IMG/VR virus record: IMGVR_UViG_3300037459_000208 | Coordinates: 1 to 59,994 of that record | Origin: a virus | Lineage: Duplodnaviria > Caudoviricetes | Direction: 5' to 3' (one strand) | DNA length: 59,994 nt | Part shown: in pieces, positions 2,042 to 18,009 of the stretch | Layout: the number at the start of each line of letters is the position of its first letter | Position numbering within the stretch: the stretch's first letter is position 1 | The notes under the pieces: generated by a model | What the model was told of the DNA's origin: nothing | Seen by the model: the letters and a program-made list of their open reading frames with translations, nothing else | Databases searched by the model: none | Program-made: the position numbers and the translations under genes

Positions 2042-2938
2042 CTACTCGAGCGCCGCGTTGGTGACTCCTGGGCTTGACGAATCCAGGAGGAACTCCCAAC
2101 CCTGCCCCGTAGCGACCTCGACGACCCGAAGCTCGTAGGACCGTCCCGAGCTCAAGCCGGTGGCGGAGAACACGTAGGCGCCTCCGGGTCGCGGTTGGAC
2201 GTTGGCCAGGAGCTCCCATTTCCCGGGCGCGGAGAACCGGAAGATGACGGATCCCTCGTTCCCGCTGACGACGACGCCGTCGAGGTAGCCCATGTCGCCG
2301 TCCCTTCCCGAGCTCACGAGGAACCGGCCCGCCCTGAGGTAGCAGAGGTTGTCCTCCGACGCGTCGCATATCAGAGGGGGAGGCGAGGGGGGAACCTGGG
2401 GGGTGGCGTCACGGTCAATTTCGTATCTCAGGCCGGCGCCGTGCATCTGCACCAGTCCCTGAGGGCCGGCCGCGAACGGCGGCCGCTGACCGGCGATCTC
2501 CACGTCGAACGTCTCGCCGGAAGCTGTCGCCGGGAAGCTGGCGGAGAGATGCGGCGGCGTGCCCGAATCATAGCCGGCGGAGATCTTGAACTCTCCAGGC
2601 GCGACGTAGGTGTCGAACCCGGTCAGCTCGTGGCAAGTCACGACGTTCGGCGGGAATGAACTGGAGAAGGTGATCGTCTCCGCCGGCGCGGAGCTCGACA
2701 CGACGACATCGACGACGAAGGATAGGGGCATGACCCAATCGTTGGACAGGCACACCGTCACGCTGGTGACGGTGCCCCCGTTGGCAGTGGTGCCGAAGCC
2801 GGACATCGTGTGGTAGGAGCCATCGGGCGGCCACAGCCAGTCCAGGGAGCCATCGTAGAAGGAATCCGACCGGGCGATCAAAGGCGAGGCGGTCGCGGGG
2901 AGGAGAAAGGCGAAGATGAGCAGAGTAGCCGGCTTCAT
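2042..2938 (-). CDS. Secreted protein: signal peptide, beta-rich domain, Pro linker, C-terminal Cys-containing domain
   Basis: MKPATLLIFAFLLPATA signal; PPSPPP linker; CDASEDNLCYLRAGRFLV...IFRFSAPGKWELL...YVFSATG...YELRVVEVATG. Confidence 0.85.
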   Translation of the reverse strand: MKPATLLIFAFLLPATASPLIARSDSFYDGSLDWLWPPDGSYHTMSGFGTTANGGTVTSVTVCLSNDWVMPLSFVVDVVVSSSAPAETITFSSSFPPNVVTCHELTGFDTYVAPGEFKISAGYDSGTPPHLSASFPATASGETFDVEIAGQRPPFAAGPQGLVQMHGAGLRYEIDRDATPQVPPSPPPLICDASEDNLCYLRAGRFLVSSGRDGDMGYLDGVVVSGNEGSVIFRFSAPGKWELLANVQPRPGGAYVFSATGLSSGRSYELRVVEVATGQGWEFLLDSSSPGVTNAALE

Positions 2939-3207
2939 TCTCGGTTGCACCCTCGGCACTGACGGTTATACGGAAGCCGACCCAGGGCGACCGATCTTCT
3001 GACCGTTTTGAGCGTCGCCCACTTCAACACGGACTCCGTTCCACAAGCACATCTCACGATACAACGAAGGGCACACCCGGTGACCCGCCTGCCATCGGCG
3101 CCGATTTCCCTAGGCAGGATTCCGATGACTGTCCAAGAGCCCGCCCTAAGACCCAACTTCCGCCGTAGGTCGTCGGGAATTCCTGACGGGTGCTCCGCGA
3201 ACTTCAT
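2935..3207 (-). CDS. Cys-rich protein resembling the N-terminal domain of HNH/AP2 homing endonucleases
   Basis: GLRAGSWTVIG...CIVRCACG...CRGC; leaderless promoter TTGACG-17-CAGGAT at 3242-3214. Confidence 0.65.
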   Translation of the reverse strand: MKFAEHPSGIPDDLRRKLGLRAGSWTVIGILPREIGADGRRVTGCALRCIVRCACGTESVLKWATLKTVRRSVALGRLPYNRQCRGCNRE

Positions 3208-3254
3208 GCCACTATCCTGTCCGCTCAGTCCCGGAGCGTCAAGTTGCGAACGTC

Positions 3255-3282
3255 AAAACGGCCGAGCGATGCCCGACCGTTT
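3255..3282 (-). terminator. Intrinsic terminator
   Basis: AAACGGTCGGGC-ATC-GCTCGGCCGTTTT hairpin with G-U pairs and U tract on the minus strand. Confidence 0.55.
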
Positions 3283-3581
3283 CCCACTCTGGCAGATCGC
3301 CAACGACGGCGCTGCCTATCTAGCATTCAGCGTCCGGTTCACGCCGAGGTCCACCCGGATCCCTCGCCCGGTTGCGGTTCAAGCGCGTCTCTTGCACATT
3401 GCTGGCTCTCGCGTTTTCTGGTGTGGTTATCGCCCGAACCCCGGGCTATGGGTCTCATGTTCCCCGGCGTGGGGACCGGTTGGCGCTATTCTATCATGCC
3501 AAATCCCGCAGCCGTTTATCCGAGGCGCAACAACTTTTGCGACCGGACCGGGTCTAAAGGTAGGTGGGATCTCTGGACGCA

Positions 3582-14480: not shown

Positions 14481-14520
14481 GGCCCGGCGGCGGCCCCTCC
14501 TGGCCGCCGGGCCTCTTTTT
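14481..14520 (+). terminator. Intrinsic terminator
   Basis: 11-bp stem GGCCCGGCGGC/GCCGCCGGGCC then TCTTTTT. Confidence 0.75.
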
Positions 14521-14531
14521 GGAGCTCAACG

Positions 14532-14777
14532 ATGAAAGACTTGATCCGGTGGGTGCTGGCCGAGGCCGCATGGGTCGCCGCCCTGACACTCGGGACGGTT
14601 TTCCCCATCCTCGGTTTTGCACACAACTTCCAACACCCGCACCTCACGCAGATGCAAGTCCTGCTCTCGGTCCCAGAATGGCACTGGTTCCCCTTCACCG
14701 CCTTCGTGGCGGCGGCGTGGGCGGTAGTCCTGCTCGTCCGGGCTCTGCGGACTCGCCCAGCGAAGACAGACGGATGA
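14532..14777 (+). CDS. Small membrane protein
   Basis: Two hydrophobic helices; GGAG RBS. Confidence 0.7.
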   Translation: MKDLIRWVLAEAAWVAALTLGTVFPILGFAHNFQHPHLTQMQVLLSVPEWHWFPFTAFVAAAWAVVLLVRALRTRPAKTDG

Positions 14778-16066
14778 GCTACGACCTGAGACCATACCAG
14801 CGAGCGGGCGCCGCCGCCGGCGTCCTCGCCCTCACCGACGGGCGGCCCAAGGATCACCCCTTGATCGTCATGCCGACCGGGTCCGGCAAGTCGCTCGTTG
14901 GGGCTGAGGTCATCTCTCAGCTACGGAACCATGGACCGTCGATCGTCCTACAGCCGAGCGGAGAAATCTTGCTCCAGAACCAGGCGAAGCTCCGAAGCTA
15001 CGGCATCGAGCCCGCGGTCTGGTCGGCGTCGATGTCCAGCAAAGAGACCGGCGACGGCGTGACGCTCGCCACGATCAAGTCCGTGGTCGAGCATACGGAG
15101 GCGTTCAGGCACATCAAGTTCGCGGTGGTCGACGAGTGCCACCTGGTCAACTCGGCACACAACCAAAGCACTGGCAAGCCCGGCCAGTACCGCCAGTTCT
15201 TCGACGCGCTCCCCGGAGTCCGCATCCTGGGCCTGACGGCGACGCCGTGGCGCATGGCCTCCAACAGCCACGGGACTGAGCAGAGATTCCTGACGCGGAC
15301 CCAGAAGAAGACCTTCAAGAGGGTGGTGCATTACACCCAGATCGGCGATCTTTTCCGGGACGGGTACCTTTGTCCCCTGAGGTACAAGTCCGTCGAGGTC
15401 TTCGAACCTGAGCAGCTGGAGCTCAACTCCGTGGCCTCCGATTTCACCGACACTTCAATTCAGCGCGCCCTCAGAGGATCCGACTTCAACCGTCGGCTGA
15501 TCAGCGGCATTCAGACGTTACTCGCCGCCGGACGAAAACACATCGCGGTGTTTACTCGATTCGTTCAGGGTGCAGGCGGGGCCAATGTCATCGCCGACGA
15601 ACTCGGCGAACCGGCGGGGGTTGTCCACGCCGGAATGCCGGCCGGGTTGCGGCGCCGGATCCTGGAAGGGTTTCAGGCTGGCGAGATCAAGGTCGTCGTC
15701 AACGTCGGGATCCTCGCCCTCGGCTTCGACTTCCCGGCCCTCGAGGCCGTGGTTGTCGGCGCGCCGACAATGTCACTCGGGAAGTGGTACCAGATGATCG
15801 GGCGGGTGGTGCGCACCCACCCGGGAAAGGAATTCGCCGAGGTCATCGACCTGTGCGGGAACCTGGAGAGGTTCGGCAAGATCGAGGACTTGGTCCTGAG
15901 GCCGGGGGGCGCGAAGGGGGACCTTTGGGCCTTCTGGTCGAAGGGCCGCGTTGACGCTGACGGGAGATCCCTGCCAGACCTCCAGATGACGAACATGAAC
16001 GTGCGGCCGCCGGACAACCCGGCGTCGAGGCGGGCGAAATACTGGGCGGGAAGGAATAGGCGATGA
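14774..16066 (+). CDS. Superfamily II DNA helicase (RadD/YejH-like)
   Basis: LRPYQ, PTGSGKS, VVDECH, GLTATP, GFDFP, QMIGRVVR. Confidence 0.95.
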   Translation: MSYDLRPYQRAGAAAGVLALTDGRPKDHPLIVMPTGSGKSLVGAEVISQLRNHGPSIVLQPSGEILLQNQAKLRSYGIEPAVWSASMSSKETGDGVTLATIKSVVEHTEAFRHIKFAVVDECHLVNSAHNQSTGKPGQYRQFFDALPGVRILGLTATPWRMASNSHGTEQRFLTRTQKKTFKRVVHYTQIGDLFRDGYLCPLRYKSVEVFEPEQLELNSVASDFTDTSIQRALRGSDFNRRLISGIQTLLAAGRKHIAVFTRFVQGAGGANVIADELGEPAGVVHAGMPAGLRRRILEGFQAGEIKVVVNVGILALGFDFPALEAVVVGAPTMSLGKWYQMIGRVVRTHPGKEFAEVIDLCGNLERFGKIEDLVLRPGGAKGDLWAFWSKGRVDADGRSLPDLQMTNMNVRPPDNPASRRAKYWAGRNRR

Positions 16067-16110
16067 GCGAAAAAACCACGATCGCCTGGACAGACCACAC
16101 TTTCACGTGA
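16063..16110 (+). pseudogene. Truncated 5' stub of a DUF5131 gene
   Basis: ATGA-coupled to the helicase; MSEKTTIAWTDHTFT* parallels MGQETNISWCDHTW at 16641. Confidence 0.8.
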
Positions 16111-16155
16111 TAGAGTGGACTGAACAAACCAAGTCCACTCTTTGGAGGAATACAA

Positions 16156-16641
16156 ATGGCTCAGACAAAAGCAGGCGCTATCAAGACGTCCGCAGGCAAG
16201 GCAGGGATTTCCGTCGCTCGATACATCCAGCGGTACGAGAGTGGTGAAAAGTGGTGCTACGCGTGCAAGAGCTGGCACTACATAGGAGCTTTCGGCAAGG
16301 ACACGACCAGGCATGACGGTAAGTCTCATCTATGCCTGAGTGCGAGGCGGTCGCGGGCGAAAGCGCTCTACCGGCCCAAACCCCCGGTCACGAAAGGAAG
16401 GGTTTACGTCGTTTTCCGGGAAGGGGACAGAAAGCAAGCCAGGCGCAGAGTCAACTACCTGGTGCAGGAGGGACTCATACCCCCGCCGTCTTCTCTGACT
16501 TGCTCCGACTGTGGTCAATCGTGGGAAAAAGGCCTACCCAGGCATGAGTACGACCACCACAATGGGTATGCTGCCGATCACCACGAAGACGTCGAGGCAG
16601 TGTGCTCGTCTTGTCACCACAACCGGCACCCGGTGAAATAA
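16156..16641 (+). CDS. HNH/Zn-finger homing-endonuclease-like protein
   Basis: KWCYACK...FGKD...DG...C N-terminal finger; ARRRVNYLV..G...CSDCG...HEYDH..GY...VEAVCSSCH..RH. Confidence 0.85.
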   Translation: MAQTKAGAIKTSAGKAGISVARYIQRYESGEKWCYACKSWHYIGAFGKDTTRHDGKSHLCLSARRSRAKALYRPKPPVTKGRVYVVFREGDRKQARRRVNYLVQEGLIPPPSSLTCSDCGQSWEKGLPRHEYDHHNGYAADHHEDVEAVCSSCHHNRHPVK

Positions 16642-17414
16642 TGGGTCAAGAAACAAACATCTCATGGTGCGATCATACTTGGAATCCGTGGATCGGGTGC
16701 CGCCACGTTTCCTCTGGCTGCGCGAACTGCTACATGTTCACGGGCATGAGGCGCAACGGTCGAGATCCTGCGCAGATCAGTAGGACGAAGACATGGGGGG
16801 ATCCGCGGAAATGGAACCACAAGGCGATGGCCGCCGGTGTAAGGCGCCGCGTCTTCACGTGCTCCTATTCCGACTTCTTCATCCACGATGCGGACCATTG
16901 GCGCCTCGAAGCTTGCCAGGCGATGGAATTTTGTCGCGCCCTGGACTTTCAGATCCTGACGAAACGTCCGGAGCGGTTCGGCGTCAACTTCTTGCCCGCC
17001 TCGAATTTCTGGCTCGGTGTTTCGGTCGAGAACAAGAAGCAGGGGCTGCCACGAATCGACATCCTACGGCGGACTCCGGCCGCGGTGCGCTTTCTGAGCA
17101 TTGAGCCGCTGCTCGAAGACCTCGGCGAAATCGACTTGACCGGGATCAACTGGATCATCATAGGCGGCGAGTCCGGTCCGGGAGCTCGACCAATGCGGAT
17201 CGCCTGGGCCGAGTCACTGATCGAGCAGGGCCGGGCGGCCGGGTGCCGCGTCTTCGTCAAGCAGACGGGAAGCGTCCTGGCGCGCAAGCGTAGGATGCGG
17301 GACTCGAAGGGCGCCAACCCGGCGGAGTGGCCGGCGTCCCTGTGCGTCCAGGAATCGCCCCGCGGTCACCCGTACTCGCTGCCACGCCAACCTGAACAGC
17401 TCTCGCTGCTATGA
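16641..17414 (+). CDS. DUF5131 (phage Gp37/Gp68) family protein
   Basis: WNPWIGCRHVSSGCANCY, VFTCSYSDFF, FQILTKRPER, RFLSIEPLL, WIIIGGESG, FVKQ. Confidence 0.95.
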   Translation: MGQETNISWCDHTWNPWIGCRHVSSGCANCYMFTGMRRNGRDPAQISRTKTWGDPRKWNHKAMAAGVRRRVFTCSYSDFFIHDADHWRLEACQAMEFCRALDFQILTKRPERFGVNFLPASNFWLGVSVENKKQGLPRIDILRRTPAAVRFLSIEPLLEDLGEIDLTGINWIIIGGESGPGARPMRIAWAESLIEQGRAAGCRVFVKQTGSVLARKRRMRDSKGANPAEWPASLCVQESPRGHPYSLPRQPEQLSLL

Positions 17415-17442
17415 GCAAAGCGCAGGACAAAGGAGGCCGACG

Positions 17443-18009
17443 ATGAGAAAGATACTTCTCGGTTTAGACCTGGCAACCAGAACCGGAGTCAGCCGCTTTG
17501 ACGAGGACGGCACTCTCGTGATGACGTGCGCGTGGGACCTGAAGCCCACAAGGCACGAGTCACAAGGGATGCGGTGGGTCAAGTTTGAGGCATCTCTGAG
17601 GCGGTTGGACGAATCTCTTCCCCAGGAGTCCTTCGTTATTTTTTCCTACGAAGAGGTAAGGCGCCACGCCGGGACGAGCGCCGCTCATGTCTACGGCGGC
17701 CTCGTGGCGATTCTTCAGCGGTTTTGCATAGAGAAGAACTACGACTACTTCGGGATCCCGGTCGGGACCATAAAAAAGGCGGCAACCGGCAAGGGTAACG
17801 CGAACAAGCGAGCCGTCTTAGACGCAGCGCGCGCCCGGTGGGGCGACCTGATACCCGAGGGAGATTTCGACATAGCTGATGCTGCCTGGGTCGGACAGAC
17901 GGCATGGAACGAGCTGTACCCGTGCGCCGCCAAGCCGAAAGCGGCGCAAGGGGAGATTTTCAATGCTCAATCCAGTCCATTGCCTGAAAGGGTCGTTACC
18001 AGTGCTTGA
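17443..18009 (+). CDS. RuvC-like Holliday junction resolvase
   Basis: LLGLDLATRTG, YEEV, IKKAATGKGNANK, DIADA. Confidence 0.9.
   Translation: MRKILLGLDLATRTGVSRFDEDGTLVMTCAWDLKPTRHESQGMRWVKFEASLRRLDESLPQESFVIFSYEEVRRHAGTSAAHVYGGLVAILQRFCIEKNYDYFGIPVGTIKKAATGKGNANKRAVLDAARARWGDLIPEGDFDIADAAWVGQTAWNELYPCAAKPKAAQGEIFNAQSSPLPERVVTSA

Follow-up and report, generated by a model that had tools for sequence, protein, structure and literature searches.

In Aeromonas phage Aeh1 the nrdA gene is split by mobE, a free-standing HNH gene that lies within the coding sequence with neither intron nor intein, and nrdA remains functional. The closest known analogue of the locus described here is the mobile-ORF (mORF) gene hybrid of mitochondria. 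Passages of the published accounts place such hybrids in fungal mitochondria, in atp6 of Allomyces macrogynus and in atp6, atp9, cox2 and nad3 of Glomus sp. (PMC3630166), and describe partial duplications of atp6 and cob beside endonuclease ORFs in Endoconidiophora (PMC6279837). Intronless homing proceeds through repair of a DNA break, in the course of which flanking DNA is co-converted (PMC12724721; also PMC2790892, PMC2330249). The DNA studied, hereafter the window, is the whole 59,994-nucleotide stretch of the IMG/VR virus record IMGVR_UViG_3300037459_000208.

The DUF5131 locus of the window

All features of the locus are on the plus strand. The original prediction described a helicase stop codon overlapping the ATG of a DUF5131 stub, followed by an HNH-type gene and a complete DUF5131 gene, and all of these are present. 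The SF2 helicase gene (14519-16066; ResIII, E 2.4e-16; Helicase_C, E 8e-12; phrog_16 DNA helicase, E 4.2e-65) ends in a TGA (16064-16066) that overlaps the ATG of stub 1 (16063-16065) as ATGA; it is here that the original DUF5131 gene had its native start. The native 5' end survives as stub 1 (16063-16110), which has 15 codons and reads MSEKTTIAWTDHTFT, that is, MSEKTTIAWTDHTF through 16104 and then Thr, followed by TGA (16108-16110) and TAG; its likeness to the DUF5131 family extends through the Phe codon and one base beyond it. Stub 1 and the nuclease gene are separated by a 50-nt leader that contains, in another frame, a further DUF5131 N-terminal remnant, IEWTEQT (stub 2, 16110-16130). Stub 2 is the single occurrence of IEWT in the six-frame translation of the window. 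In 2.65 million translated positions IEWT was found 62 times, in every case (62 of 62) in a DUF5131 N-terminus or stub context, and the fused stubs of two family members (P0032 and P0040) also read IEWTEQT. Stub 2 is older than stub 1, and the stacking of two stubs in the window suggests serial invasions. The Ile-Glu-Trp-Thr codons of stub 2 form the left arm of a hairpin with perfect 10-bp arms and a 10-nt loop (16112-16141; RNA fold -19.4 kcal/mol, z -2.43), whose fold energy was equalled by 2 of 200 shuffles. Just downstream of the hairpin is the nuclease ribosome-binding site, GGAGGA (16144-16149), 6 nt before the nuclease ATG.

The nuclease gene (16156-16641, 161 aa) ends in a TAA (16639-16641) that overlaps by one base the ATG (16641-16643) of the complete DUF5131 gene (16641-17414, 257 aa). 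The latter starts MGQETNISWCDHTWNPW and has its own ATG, a complete N-terminus and a Shine-Dalgarno-like GGTGA. It matches PF07505 over profile positions 1-226 of 243, with 219.6 bits (gathering cut-off 28.9) and E 6.1e-65, and it also matches phrog_2045 (E 2e-64); DUF5131 is a radical-SAM-superfamily protein. Within the gene we distinguish a presumed replacement 5' end, MGQETNISWCDHTWN (16641-16685), with AT-rich third positions, from a presumed resident body, which runs from Pro-Trp on (16686-17414), carries PF07505 and is native-like in composition.

The label HNH in the original prediction has no basis in Pfam, but weak PHROG hits, invariant Cys and His columns and modest HNH fold matches speak for it. 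ORF 16156-16641 matched no Pfam family at E<=0.01, and at E<=10 it matched zinc-ribbon models only; the match to the PHROG HNH family phrog_2255 was weak (E 9.9e-4), and a sequence profile search of PDB structures returned nothing relevant. The predicted structure (pLDDT 92.9) has a helical N-terminal domain with a zinc ribbon (residues 1-75) and a C-terminal domain (about 85-161) that appears to be of the HNH/beta-beta-alpha-Me type, with the signature CxxC...HEYDHH...CxxCH. Residues 85-161 aligned best to HNH nucleases: the Gme HNH nickase (Z 5.5, rmsd 4.4, 74 aligned), then Hpy99I (Z 4.9), McrA (Z 3.9) and the GVE2 HNH protein (Z 3.6). Hpy99I was also the top Foldseek match (E 2e-3). Eight residues, C116, C119, H130, D133, H134, C150, C153 and H154, are invariant across 49 nuclease sequences. 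The predicted fold suggests that the ORF probably belongs to the HNH/beta-beta-alpha-Me superfamily, a placement that is probable rather than proven because the fold scores are modest. The family is unnamed and large, with 7217 cluster representatives at E<=1e-3, and 19 of the 150 best representatives start with the DUF5131 motif. Among isolated phages the nuclease had only two matches, both distant (30% identity) and in a different context.

Recurrence, break point and composition

The pattern of a stub, a nuclease gene and a DUF5131 gene with a new start, for which the original prediction called for a survey, was present in 38 of 81 distinct loci of the window nuclease family. On reading, 16 of these stubs were separate and 22 were fused in frame to the nuclease; the other 43 loci had no recognisable stub. 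Stubs were also scored with an 8-residue matrix trained on nuclease-free DUF5131 N-termini only. Scores of at least 12 bits were obtained upstream of the nuclease in 32 of 81 loci, as against 2/81 for minus-strand, 2/77 for upstream-shifted and 0/69 for downstream-shifted controls, and one of the two positive upstream-shifted controls was a true DUF5131 start. Because stub 1 scores 15.1 bits and the scores across the 81 loci exceed those of the controls, the stub in the window is more than a chance resemblance. The nuclease gene is directly upstream of DUF5131, on the same strand, in 67 of 81 loci, with the DUF5131 start 0-700 nt downstream (median 24 nt), and it is downstream of DUF5131 in one. 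No DUF5131 was found within 3 kb in 13 loci, in two of them because the contig ends. Dozens of phages and prophages that are not related to one another have this arrangement of three elements. Among 80 viral DUF5131 loci, one has a credible stub.

The pattern also occurs, at the same DUF5131 site, with two other nuclease domains, a classical HNH + NUMOD3 nuclease on the opposite strand (L002) and an Endonuclease VII nuclease (L009). Both have the same N-terminal domain as the window family, so that three nuclease domains occur at one site. The stub ends fit the predicted break between DHT(F/W) and NPW. They fall from W+1 to W+6, Asn-Pro-Trp is never included, and no stub extends beyond the Asn of the W-x-D-x-T-W/F-N-P motif.

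The proposal that the first 14 codons had been recoded found a counterpart in composition: a GC3 trough runs from W-6 to W+7, only in nuclease-linked genes. In nuclease-linked DUF5131 genes (n=49) GC3 rises from 0.55 over the first 13 codons to 0.72 over the 15 that follow and 0.76 in the gene body, and that of the nuclease is 0.60; nuclease-free genes (n=72) have 0.64, 0.60 and 0.62 at the same three positions, with no dip. For genes with high-GC bodies the difference was -0.236 when linked (n=37) and -0.027 when nuclease-free (n=29; p=1.2e-8). The first ~14 codons of nuclease-linked genes thus have low GC3 in common with the nuclease. Between W+7 and W+8, GC3 jumps from 0.65 to 0.89, and from W+8 on linked and nuclease-free genes are equal. 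Stub GC3 is native-like, at 0.75, and that of the new ends is 0.56 (n=21; p=7.7e-4); the stub is higher in 15 loci, lower in 2 and tied in 4. In the window the values are 0.64 for stub 1 (11 codons) and 0.36 for the new 5' end (codons 2-15), followed by 0.86 in codons 16-29 and 0.79 in the remainder of the gene; taken alone, the low value of the window's new end is not exceptional, as 2 of 17 control genes are equally low. The trough could come in part from selection for recoding rather than from foreign origin.

Stub and new end of one locus are strongly diverged: across 31 loci the median nucleotide identity is 0.57, and no locus exceeds 0.74. In 3 of the 31 the wrong downstream motif had been picked. 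The nuclease core and DUF5131 show weak co-divergence: their identities correlate weakly (Spearman 0.23; 1711 pairs, 59 loci), and some locus pairs share 0.81 of the nuclease core and 0.33 of DUF5131. Judged on these pairwise identities, the nuclease phylogeny is incongruent with that of the host gene. Identity in the first 9 N-terminal residues did not co-vary with nuclease identity (Spearman 0.07), in a test too weak to decide either way. A search of viral and metagenome contigs with the helicase gave no close relative of the phage, whether with or without the cassette, and blastn comparison of 198 loci gave no pair of occupied and empty alleles. One sequencing run, perhaps the source of the record, contained the stretch at contig level, as a single contig with neither joints nor variants.

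A homing cassette and its alternatives

We put the probability at about 0.75 that the element is an intron-less homing cassette with a replacement DUF5131 5' end, the cleavage, its site, the repair and the immunity being steps of the model below. Recurrence, the stub ends, the GC3 boundary and the unrelatedness of stub and new end all favour the splicing-free mobile cassette of the original prediction. So do the weak correlation of nuclease and DUF5131 identities, the rarity of the nuclease among sampled DUF5131 loci, the three nuclease domains at one site and the lack of an Rfam intron match at E<=10. As in a mORF-type gene hybrid, an endonuclease ORF lies between an inserted and a native copy of one terminus, which are diverged and of different origin. 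The cassette would begin with a short leader, continue with the free-standing gene of an HNH-type nuclease and end with the foreign first ~14-15 codons of DUF5131, including the start codon. The N-terminal domain of the nuclease would recognise the coding sequence of I-x-W-T/C-D-x-T-W/F-N-P in nuclease-free DUF5131 5' ends, and the DNA would be broken at about the Asn-Pro codons. Repair of the right-hand end from a cassette-bearing donor would copy in the donor's 5' end and nuclease and keep the recipient's gene body, and the recipient's original 5' end would lose 0-15 nt and remain upstream as the stub. The left junction may need no homology when the genome context is new; alternatively, the stub of the donor may act as the homology arm on the left. 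The gene would stay whole without splicing, and the stub would afterwards be a short upstream ORF, as in the window, or supply the nuclease start codon, as in the 22 in-frame fusions. Immunity of the resident allele is unproven, because the new 5' end keeps the same amino-acid motif as the target.

An alternative is that the nuclease and a complete DUF5131 gene travel together and have replaced the resident gene except for its first 14 codons; the entire downstream gene, and not its 5' end alone, would then be foreign. Some loci (L151/L162, L099/L101) have unrelated sequence upstream but similar DNA from the beginning of the stub, across the nuclease and for about 500 bp of DUF5131, as such co-transfer would produce. 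Five loci (L104, L118, L142, L143, L160) have stub and nuclease with no DUF5131 body, so the body is not always retained. Transfer of the whole gene is unlikely, given that GC3 is at body level from W+8, where it equals that of nuclease-free genes, that the body in the window (0.79) is close to the helicase (0.84) and not to the nuclease (0.67), and that nuclease and DUF5131 identities are poorly correlated.

The nuclease and DUF5131 might instead cooperate and be inherited as a functional operon, the stubs being relics of one ancient rearrangement that were kept because they start nuclease translation. Tight adjacency and short spacing in 67 of 81 loci of many phyla agree with an operon, as do the translation of 22 stubs as the nuclease N-terminus and the retention of the stub by some nucleases with no DUF5131 nearby. 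We nevertheless regard an operon as quite improbable: 16 stubs are out of frame or stop-terminated, the stub-to-nuclease junctions vary widely, and stub composition is native and that of the new end is not. Moreover, three unrelated nuclease domains share one site, one of them on the opposite strand; nuclease and DUF5131 show weak co-divergence; and, when 30 DUF5131 loci were sampled among 301 genomes of the Actinomycetes class, only 1 carried the nuclease and 29 lacked it.

Tandem duplication of DUF5131 with decay of one 5' end, independent of the nuclease, was the outcome that would have told against the original prediction, and it was not seen: the downstream copy in its own locus was the best match of the stub in only 1 of 25 loci, and stubs are no closer to that copy than to unrelated alleles. 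In one genome (L193/L199) an 85-residue DUF5131 5' fragment does precede a complete copy by ~550 nt, and no nuclease is recognisable in the interval. Elsewhere the nuclease always lies between stub and complete copy, W+6 bounds every stub end, and stub scores are far above control scores. Duplication, or chance resemblance of the stub, is largely refuted by the control scores and the best-match test, and we consider it very improbable. A self-splicing intron or an intein around the nuclease ORF, with stub and body joined by splicing, is hardly credible: group I introns often have the upstream exon fused in frame to a homing endonuclease ORF, but the stub is followed by stop codons, the gene downstream is complete with its own ATG and GGTGA, splicing of an intron would duplicate the motif, and positions 15500-17500 gave no Rfam intron-family match at E<=10.

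Significance and comparison with known elements

If the locus is a homing cassette, phage coding sequence that looks essential can accommodate a homing endonuclease with neither intron nor intein, because the endonuclease carries a spare gene end. The stub would be a dated scar from which the break site can be read, to a precision of a few bases, with no need of biochemistry. An unnamed family of thousands of proteins would gain a probable function and, as its probable target, a 40-bp site. The fused stubs would also account for mis-annotated N-terminal extensions (M..IEWTD..) on "hypothetical proteins". A further consequence is that the first 14 codons of nuclease-linked genes would differ in history from the remainder. 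The chances are about even that the locus represents a widespread and undescribed class of homing elements of phages and prophages, 5'-replacement cassettes, with a modular nuclease and stranded, co-opted and stacked stubs. Members of the class would combine one target-reading N-terminal domain with interchangeable HNH or Endonuclease VII cutters and recoded first ~14 codons. Every invasion would strand the start region of the victim as a stub, which would then be co-opted as the translation start of the nuclease, and perhaps as promoter or operator, and stubs stacked by successive invasions would be a readable record of past hosts.

In Aeh1 nrdA the two polypeptides reassemble; DUF5131, by contrast, would be rebuilt full-length, its old 5' end discarded. 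The cassette resembles SegF, SegG, SegB and MobE of T4 in that a free-standing nuclease gene adjoins the conserved gene that it presumably cuts, although the window nuclease family has no Pfam model. In the phage literature covered, no report was found of a duplicated, diverged target-gene end around a homing endonuclease. The likeness to mORFs lies in the entry of an endonuclease ORF into a protein gene together with a foreign terminal segment, the native segment being left as a remnant. Copy divergence is also similar, with 63.5% nucleotide identity for Glomus atp6 (PMC3630166) and a median of 57% at DUF5131 loci. The hosts differ, the DUF5131 cassette being found in phages and prophages of many bacterial phyla and mORFs in mitochondria, and so do the nucleases, which are of HNH and Endonuclease VII types in the former and LAGLIDADG and GIY-YIG types in the latter. 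The DUF5131 cassette further differs from mORFs in that a single nuclease family is dedicated to a single target gene and that stubs can stack. Finally, the two are mirror images: the spare-gene-end design is so far on record from fungal mitochondria, where mORFs replace the 3' end of the gene, whereas the DUF5131 cassette replaces the 5' end. The 5' version is the more demanding, because the cassette must replace the start codon and translation signals and therefore bring its own, and the remnant keeps the old ones.

Layout of the nuclease locus

The window is a complete virus record (59,994 bp, with terminal repeats), and the stretch is present in one marine-sediment metagenome run. Stub 1, the leftover native DUF5131 N-terminal codons, starts at 16063 on the plus strand, where its ATG overlaps the helicase stop (ATGA), and reads MSEKTTIAWTDHTFT before two stops. 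A leader of 50 nt, with a perfect 10-bp hairpin and a GGAGGA ribosome-binding site, separates stub 1 from the nuclease ORF (16156-16641; 161 aa), whose TAA has one base in common with the ATG of the complete DUF5131 gene (16641-17414; PF07505, E 6.1e-65). An Rfam search of window 15500-17500 found no intron-like RNA. Given this layout, the PF07505 match and the lack of intron-like RNA, the locus as first described, from the helicase stop/ATG overlap through stub, ORF and TAA/ATG overlap to a complete DUF5131 gene, was correct as written.

The window nuclease was not recognized by Pfam, and its PHROGs matches, to endonuclease VII and HNH families, were weak. A word-indexed search gave 132 full-length relatives (E<=1e-3), and an exhaustive profile search gave 7217, 1200 and 178 cluster representatives at E<=1e-3, 1e-10 and 1e-30, respectively. 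Two CxxC pairs and HEYDH are among the invariant columns of a 49-sequence alignment. Confidence in the AlphaFold model is high (pLDDT 92.9), and the best structural alignments of its C-terminal half are to HNH nucleases, with modest scores. Because of the weak PHROGs matches, the invariant Cys/His columns and the modest fold alignments, the protein is named a probable HNH-type nuclease; its N-terminal domain is separate and modelled as helices plus a zinc ribbon.

Inside the leader is a second stub, IEWTEQT (16110-16130), in a frame other than that of stub 1, and its codons supply the hairpin's left arm (hairpin at 16112-16141; -19.4 kcal/mol, z -2.43). IEWT occurs only here in the window, and each of its 62 occurrences among 2.65 million translated positions is in a DUF5131 N-terminus or stub; IEWTEQT is exactly the stub of two fused members of the nuclease family. 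Stacked stubs were found in two of the 81 loci surveyed, the window and L118. A sigma-70-like site lies at window 16087-16116, its -35 (TGGACA) formed by the stub Trp-Thr codons and its extended -10 (TG-n-TAGAGT) at the left edge of the cassette; it is a consensus match only, one seen versus 0.2 expected in shuffles. The stub/cassette junction may create a putative promoter for the nuclease.

Survey of nuclease loci

With the family alignment as query, species-representative genomes yielded 24 loci and viral contigs 62; with six duplicates taken out and the window added, the set comprised 81 distinct loci. The genomes were from Chloroflexota, Binatia, Bacteroidota, Actinomycetota, Acidobacteriota, Gemmatimonadota, Cyanobacteria, Pseudomonadota and Myxococcota, plus one Alicyclobacillus plasmid. 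In 67 of the 81 loci the nuclease is followed on the same strand by a DUF5131 gene whose start lies 0-700 nt (median 24) away; no DUF5131 match was obtained in 13, a contig end being the reason in two. In the one reverse-order locus (L119, 2033-3522), the nuclease directly follows a complete DUF5131 gene and a second is absent. Stubs were scored with a matrix trained on nuclease-free DUF5131 N-termini alone, and at a cut-off of 12 bits a stub was found at the nuclease start or just upstream in 32/81 loci, versus 2/81, 2/77 and 0/69 in controls. Reading of the translations gave 38/81, 16 of them separate, as in the window, and 22 in-frame fusions with the nuclease. P0002, the closest relative of the window nuclease (70% identity), is of the fused form, with a leader equal in length to the window's, and the DUF5131 motif opens 19 of the 150 best family representatives. 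The pattern of stub, nuclease and new start, for which a survey had been suggested, thus recurs, and the cassette is a real, recurrent element.

Five loci (L104, L118, L142, L143 and L160; about 2900-3500 in each) have a stub and nuclease with no DUF5131 body within 3 kb downstream; either DUF5131 was lost after its decapitation, or the stub moves together with the nuclease. In Streptomyces phage Riptide (L200, 2391-3030), a distant relative of the nuclease (30% identity) lies between two tRNA-Met(cat) genes of a tRNA cluster, the second of which it overlaps; here too a nuclease is flanked by a duplicated target.

Two surveyed nucleases, L002 and L009, share the N-terminal domain of the window nuclease but have different nuclease domains. 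L002 carries this domain (47% identity over 86 residues) with NUMOD3 and a classical HNH domain (PF01844); it is on the opposite strand, flanked by stub MGENSKIEWCDHTFN and a complete DUF5131 gene. The L009 protein joins the shared domain to a stub and an Endonuclease VII domain (PF02945, E 3.3e-17) and is encoded directly upstream of DUF5131. Domain swapping is usual behaviour for homing endonuclease families. Because it is constant while the nuclease domains swap, the N-terminal domain is the candidate target-reading part.

Identities of nuclease core and DUF5131 are weakly correlated (Spearman 0.23), and some nuclease pairs about 80% identical lie beside DUF5131 genes of only 33-38% identity. 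DUF5131 was present in 26 of 301 evenly sampled Actinomycetes-class genomes, and 1 of 30 DUF5131 loci from that sample, the starting locus, had the nuclease. Among viral contigs, metagenome contigs and the surveyed loci, no close relatives were found that form an occupied/empty pair.

Presumed break site and replacement 5' end

Counting codons from the invariant Trp (W) of the motif W-x-D-x-T-W/F-N-P, all stubs end, by reading, between W+1 and W+6, and none includes the Pro-Trp after the motif Asn, in agreement with the predicted break before NPW. A random duplication process would not produce this bound. The observed stub ends would follow from a DNA break near the Asn-Pro codons whose left end was trimmed to varying extents. 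Inverted repeats with arms of at least 5 nt take in the Trp-Thr codons at 7/39 stub ends, versus 6/114 full-length N-termini and 22/624 other TGGAC sites, about a five-fold enrichment over controls; at the L094, L111 and L125 stub ends and at window 16112-16141, these codons pair with a complementary copy 9-16 nt downstream. In L111 (3625-3640), a T run exactly at the boundary of the Phe and Asn codons has one surplus T, which shifts the frame of the downstream DUF5131 gene at the presumed cut site; it could be a scar of imprecise repair or a sequencing error in the homopolymer.

Some nuclease-linked DUF5131 genes have about nine extra residues (e.g. RGxDGSxG) between IEWT and TWNP, where stubs break. 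Such N-termini occur in L085, L086, L089, L095, L102, L109, L110, L113, L125 and L127, and also in L002 and L119. The frequencies, 10/59 nuclease-linked genes versus 2 of about 29 sampled Actinomycetes genes (one nuclease-linked, one behind a 5' fragment), do not differ significantly. Insertion-type genes may be resistant alleles. In L199 (minus strand, about 1480-2300; the same place as L193), a DUF5131 5' fragment of 85 residues precedes a complete, insertion-type copy by about 550 nt, with no recognisable nuclease between them.

In 49 nuclease-linked DUF5131 genes with canonical spacing, third-position GC (GC3) rose from 0.55 over the first 13 codons to 0.72 over the 15 that follow and 0.76 over the body, with 0.60 for the nuclease; in 72 distinct nuclease-free genes the same segments gave 0.64, 0.60 and 0.62, with no dip. 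(L185, one row of the nuclease-free control sets, is from a genome flagged unpublished.) Where body GC3 exceeded 0.7, the dip was -0.236 in nuclease-linked genes (n=37) versus -0.027 in nuclease-free genes (n=29; p=1.2e-8). At single-codon resolution, the trough extends from W-6 through W+7, and from W+8 on nuclease-linked and nuclease-free genes no longer differ, so the right-hand boundary is one or two codons beyond the longest stubs. The window's own GC3 step alone is not significant. Within loci, stubs had a GC3 of 0.75 versus 0.56 for the new ends (n=21, p=7.7e-4), being higher in 15, lower in 2 and equal in 4; stubs are native-like in composition. Stubs are no more similar to the downstream copy in their own locus than to unrelated alleles: that copy was the best match in 1/25 loci, a median of 35% of other alleles matched better, and median nucleotide identity between a stub and its own new end was 0.57. 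DUF5131 N-terminal residues gave no signal of co-variation with the nuclease. Judged by sequence, the replacement 5' end appears foreign, and the recoding put forward in the original prediction is borne out by the trough. Recurrence, the stub-end bound, the GC3 trough and the stub/new-end divergence together support a cassette of nuclease plus replacement 5' end.

Comparison with known systems

A literature search, with supplements outside its scope, found no phage report of 5'-end replacement by a nuclease cassette. Two reports describe fungal mitochondrial mobile-ORF hybrids in which an endonuclease ORF carries a C-terminal segment of foreign origin, the native segment being stranded downstream (PMC3630166; PMC6279837); Allomyces atp6 is given as the first such case, and the two copies of Glomus atp6 are 63.5% identical (PMC3630166). 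The design matches that of the DUF5131 cassette, but the mitochondrial hybrids replace a C-terminal segment, whereas the DUF5131 cassette replaces the 5' end, in phages, with a dedicated HNH/Endonuclease VII family.
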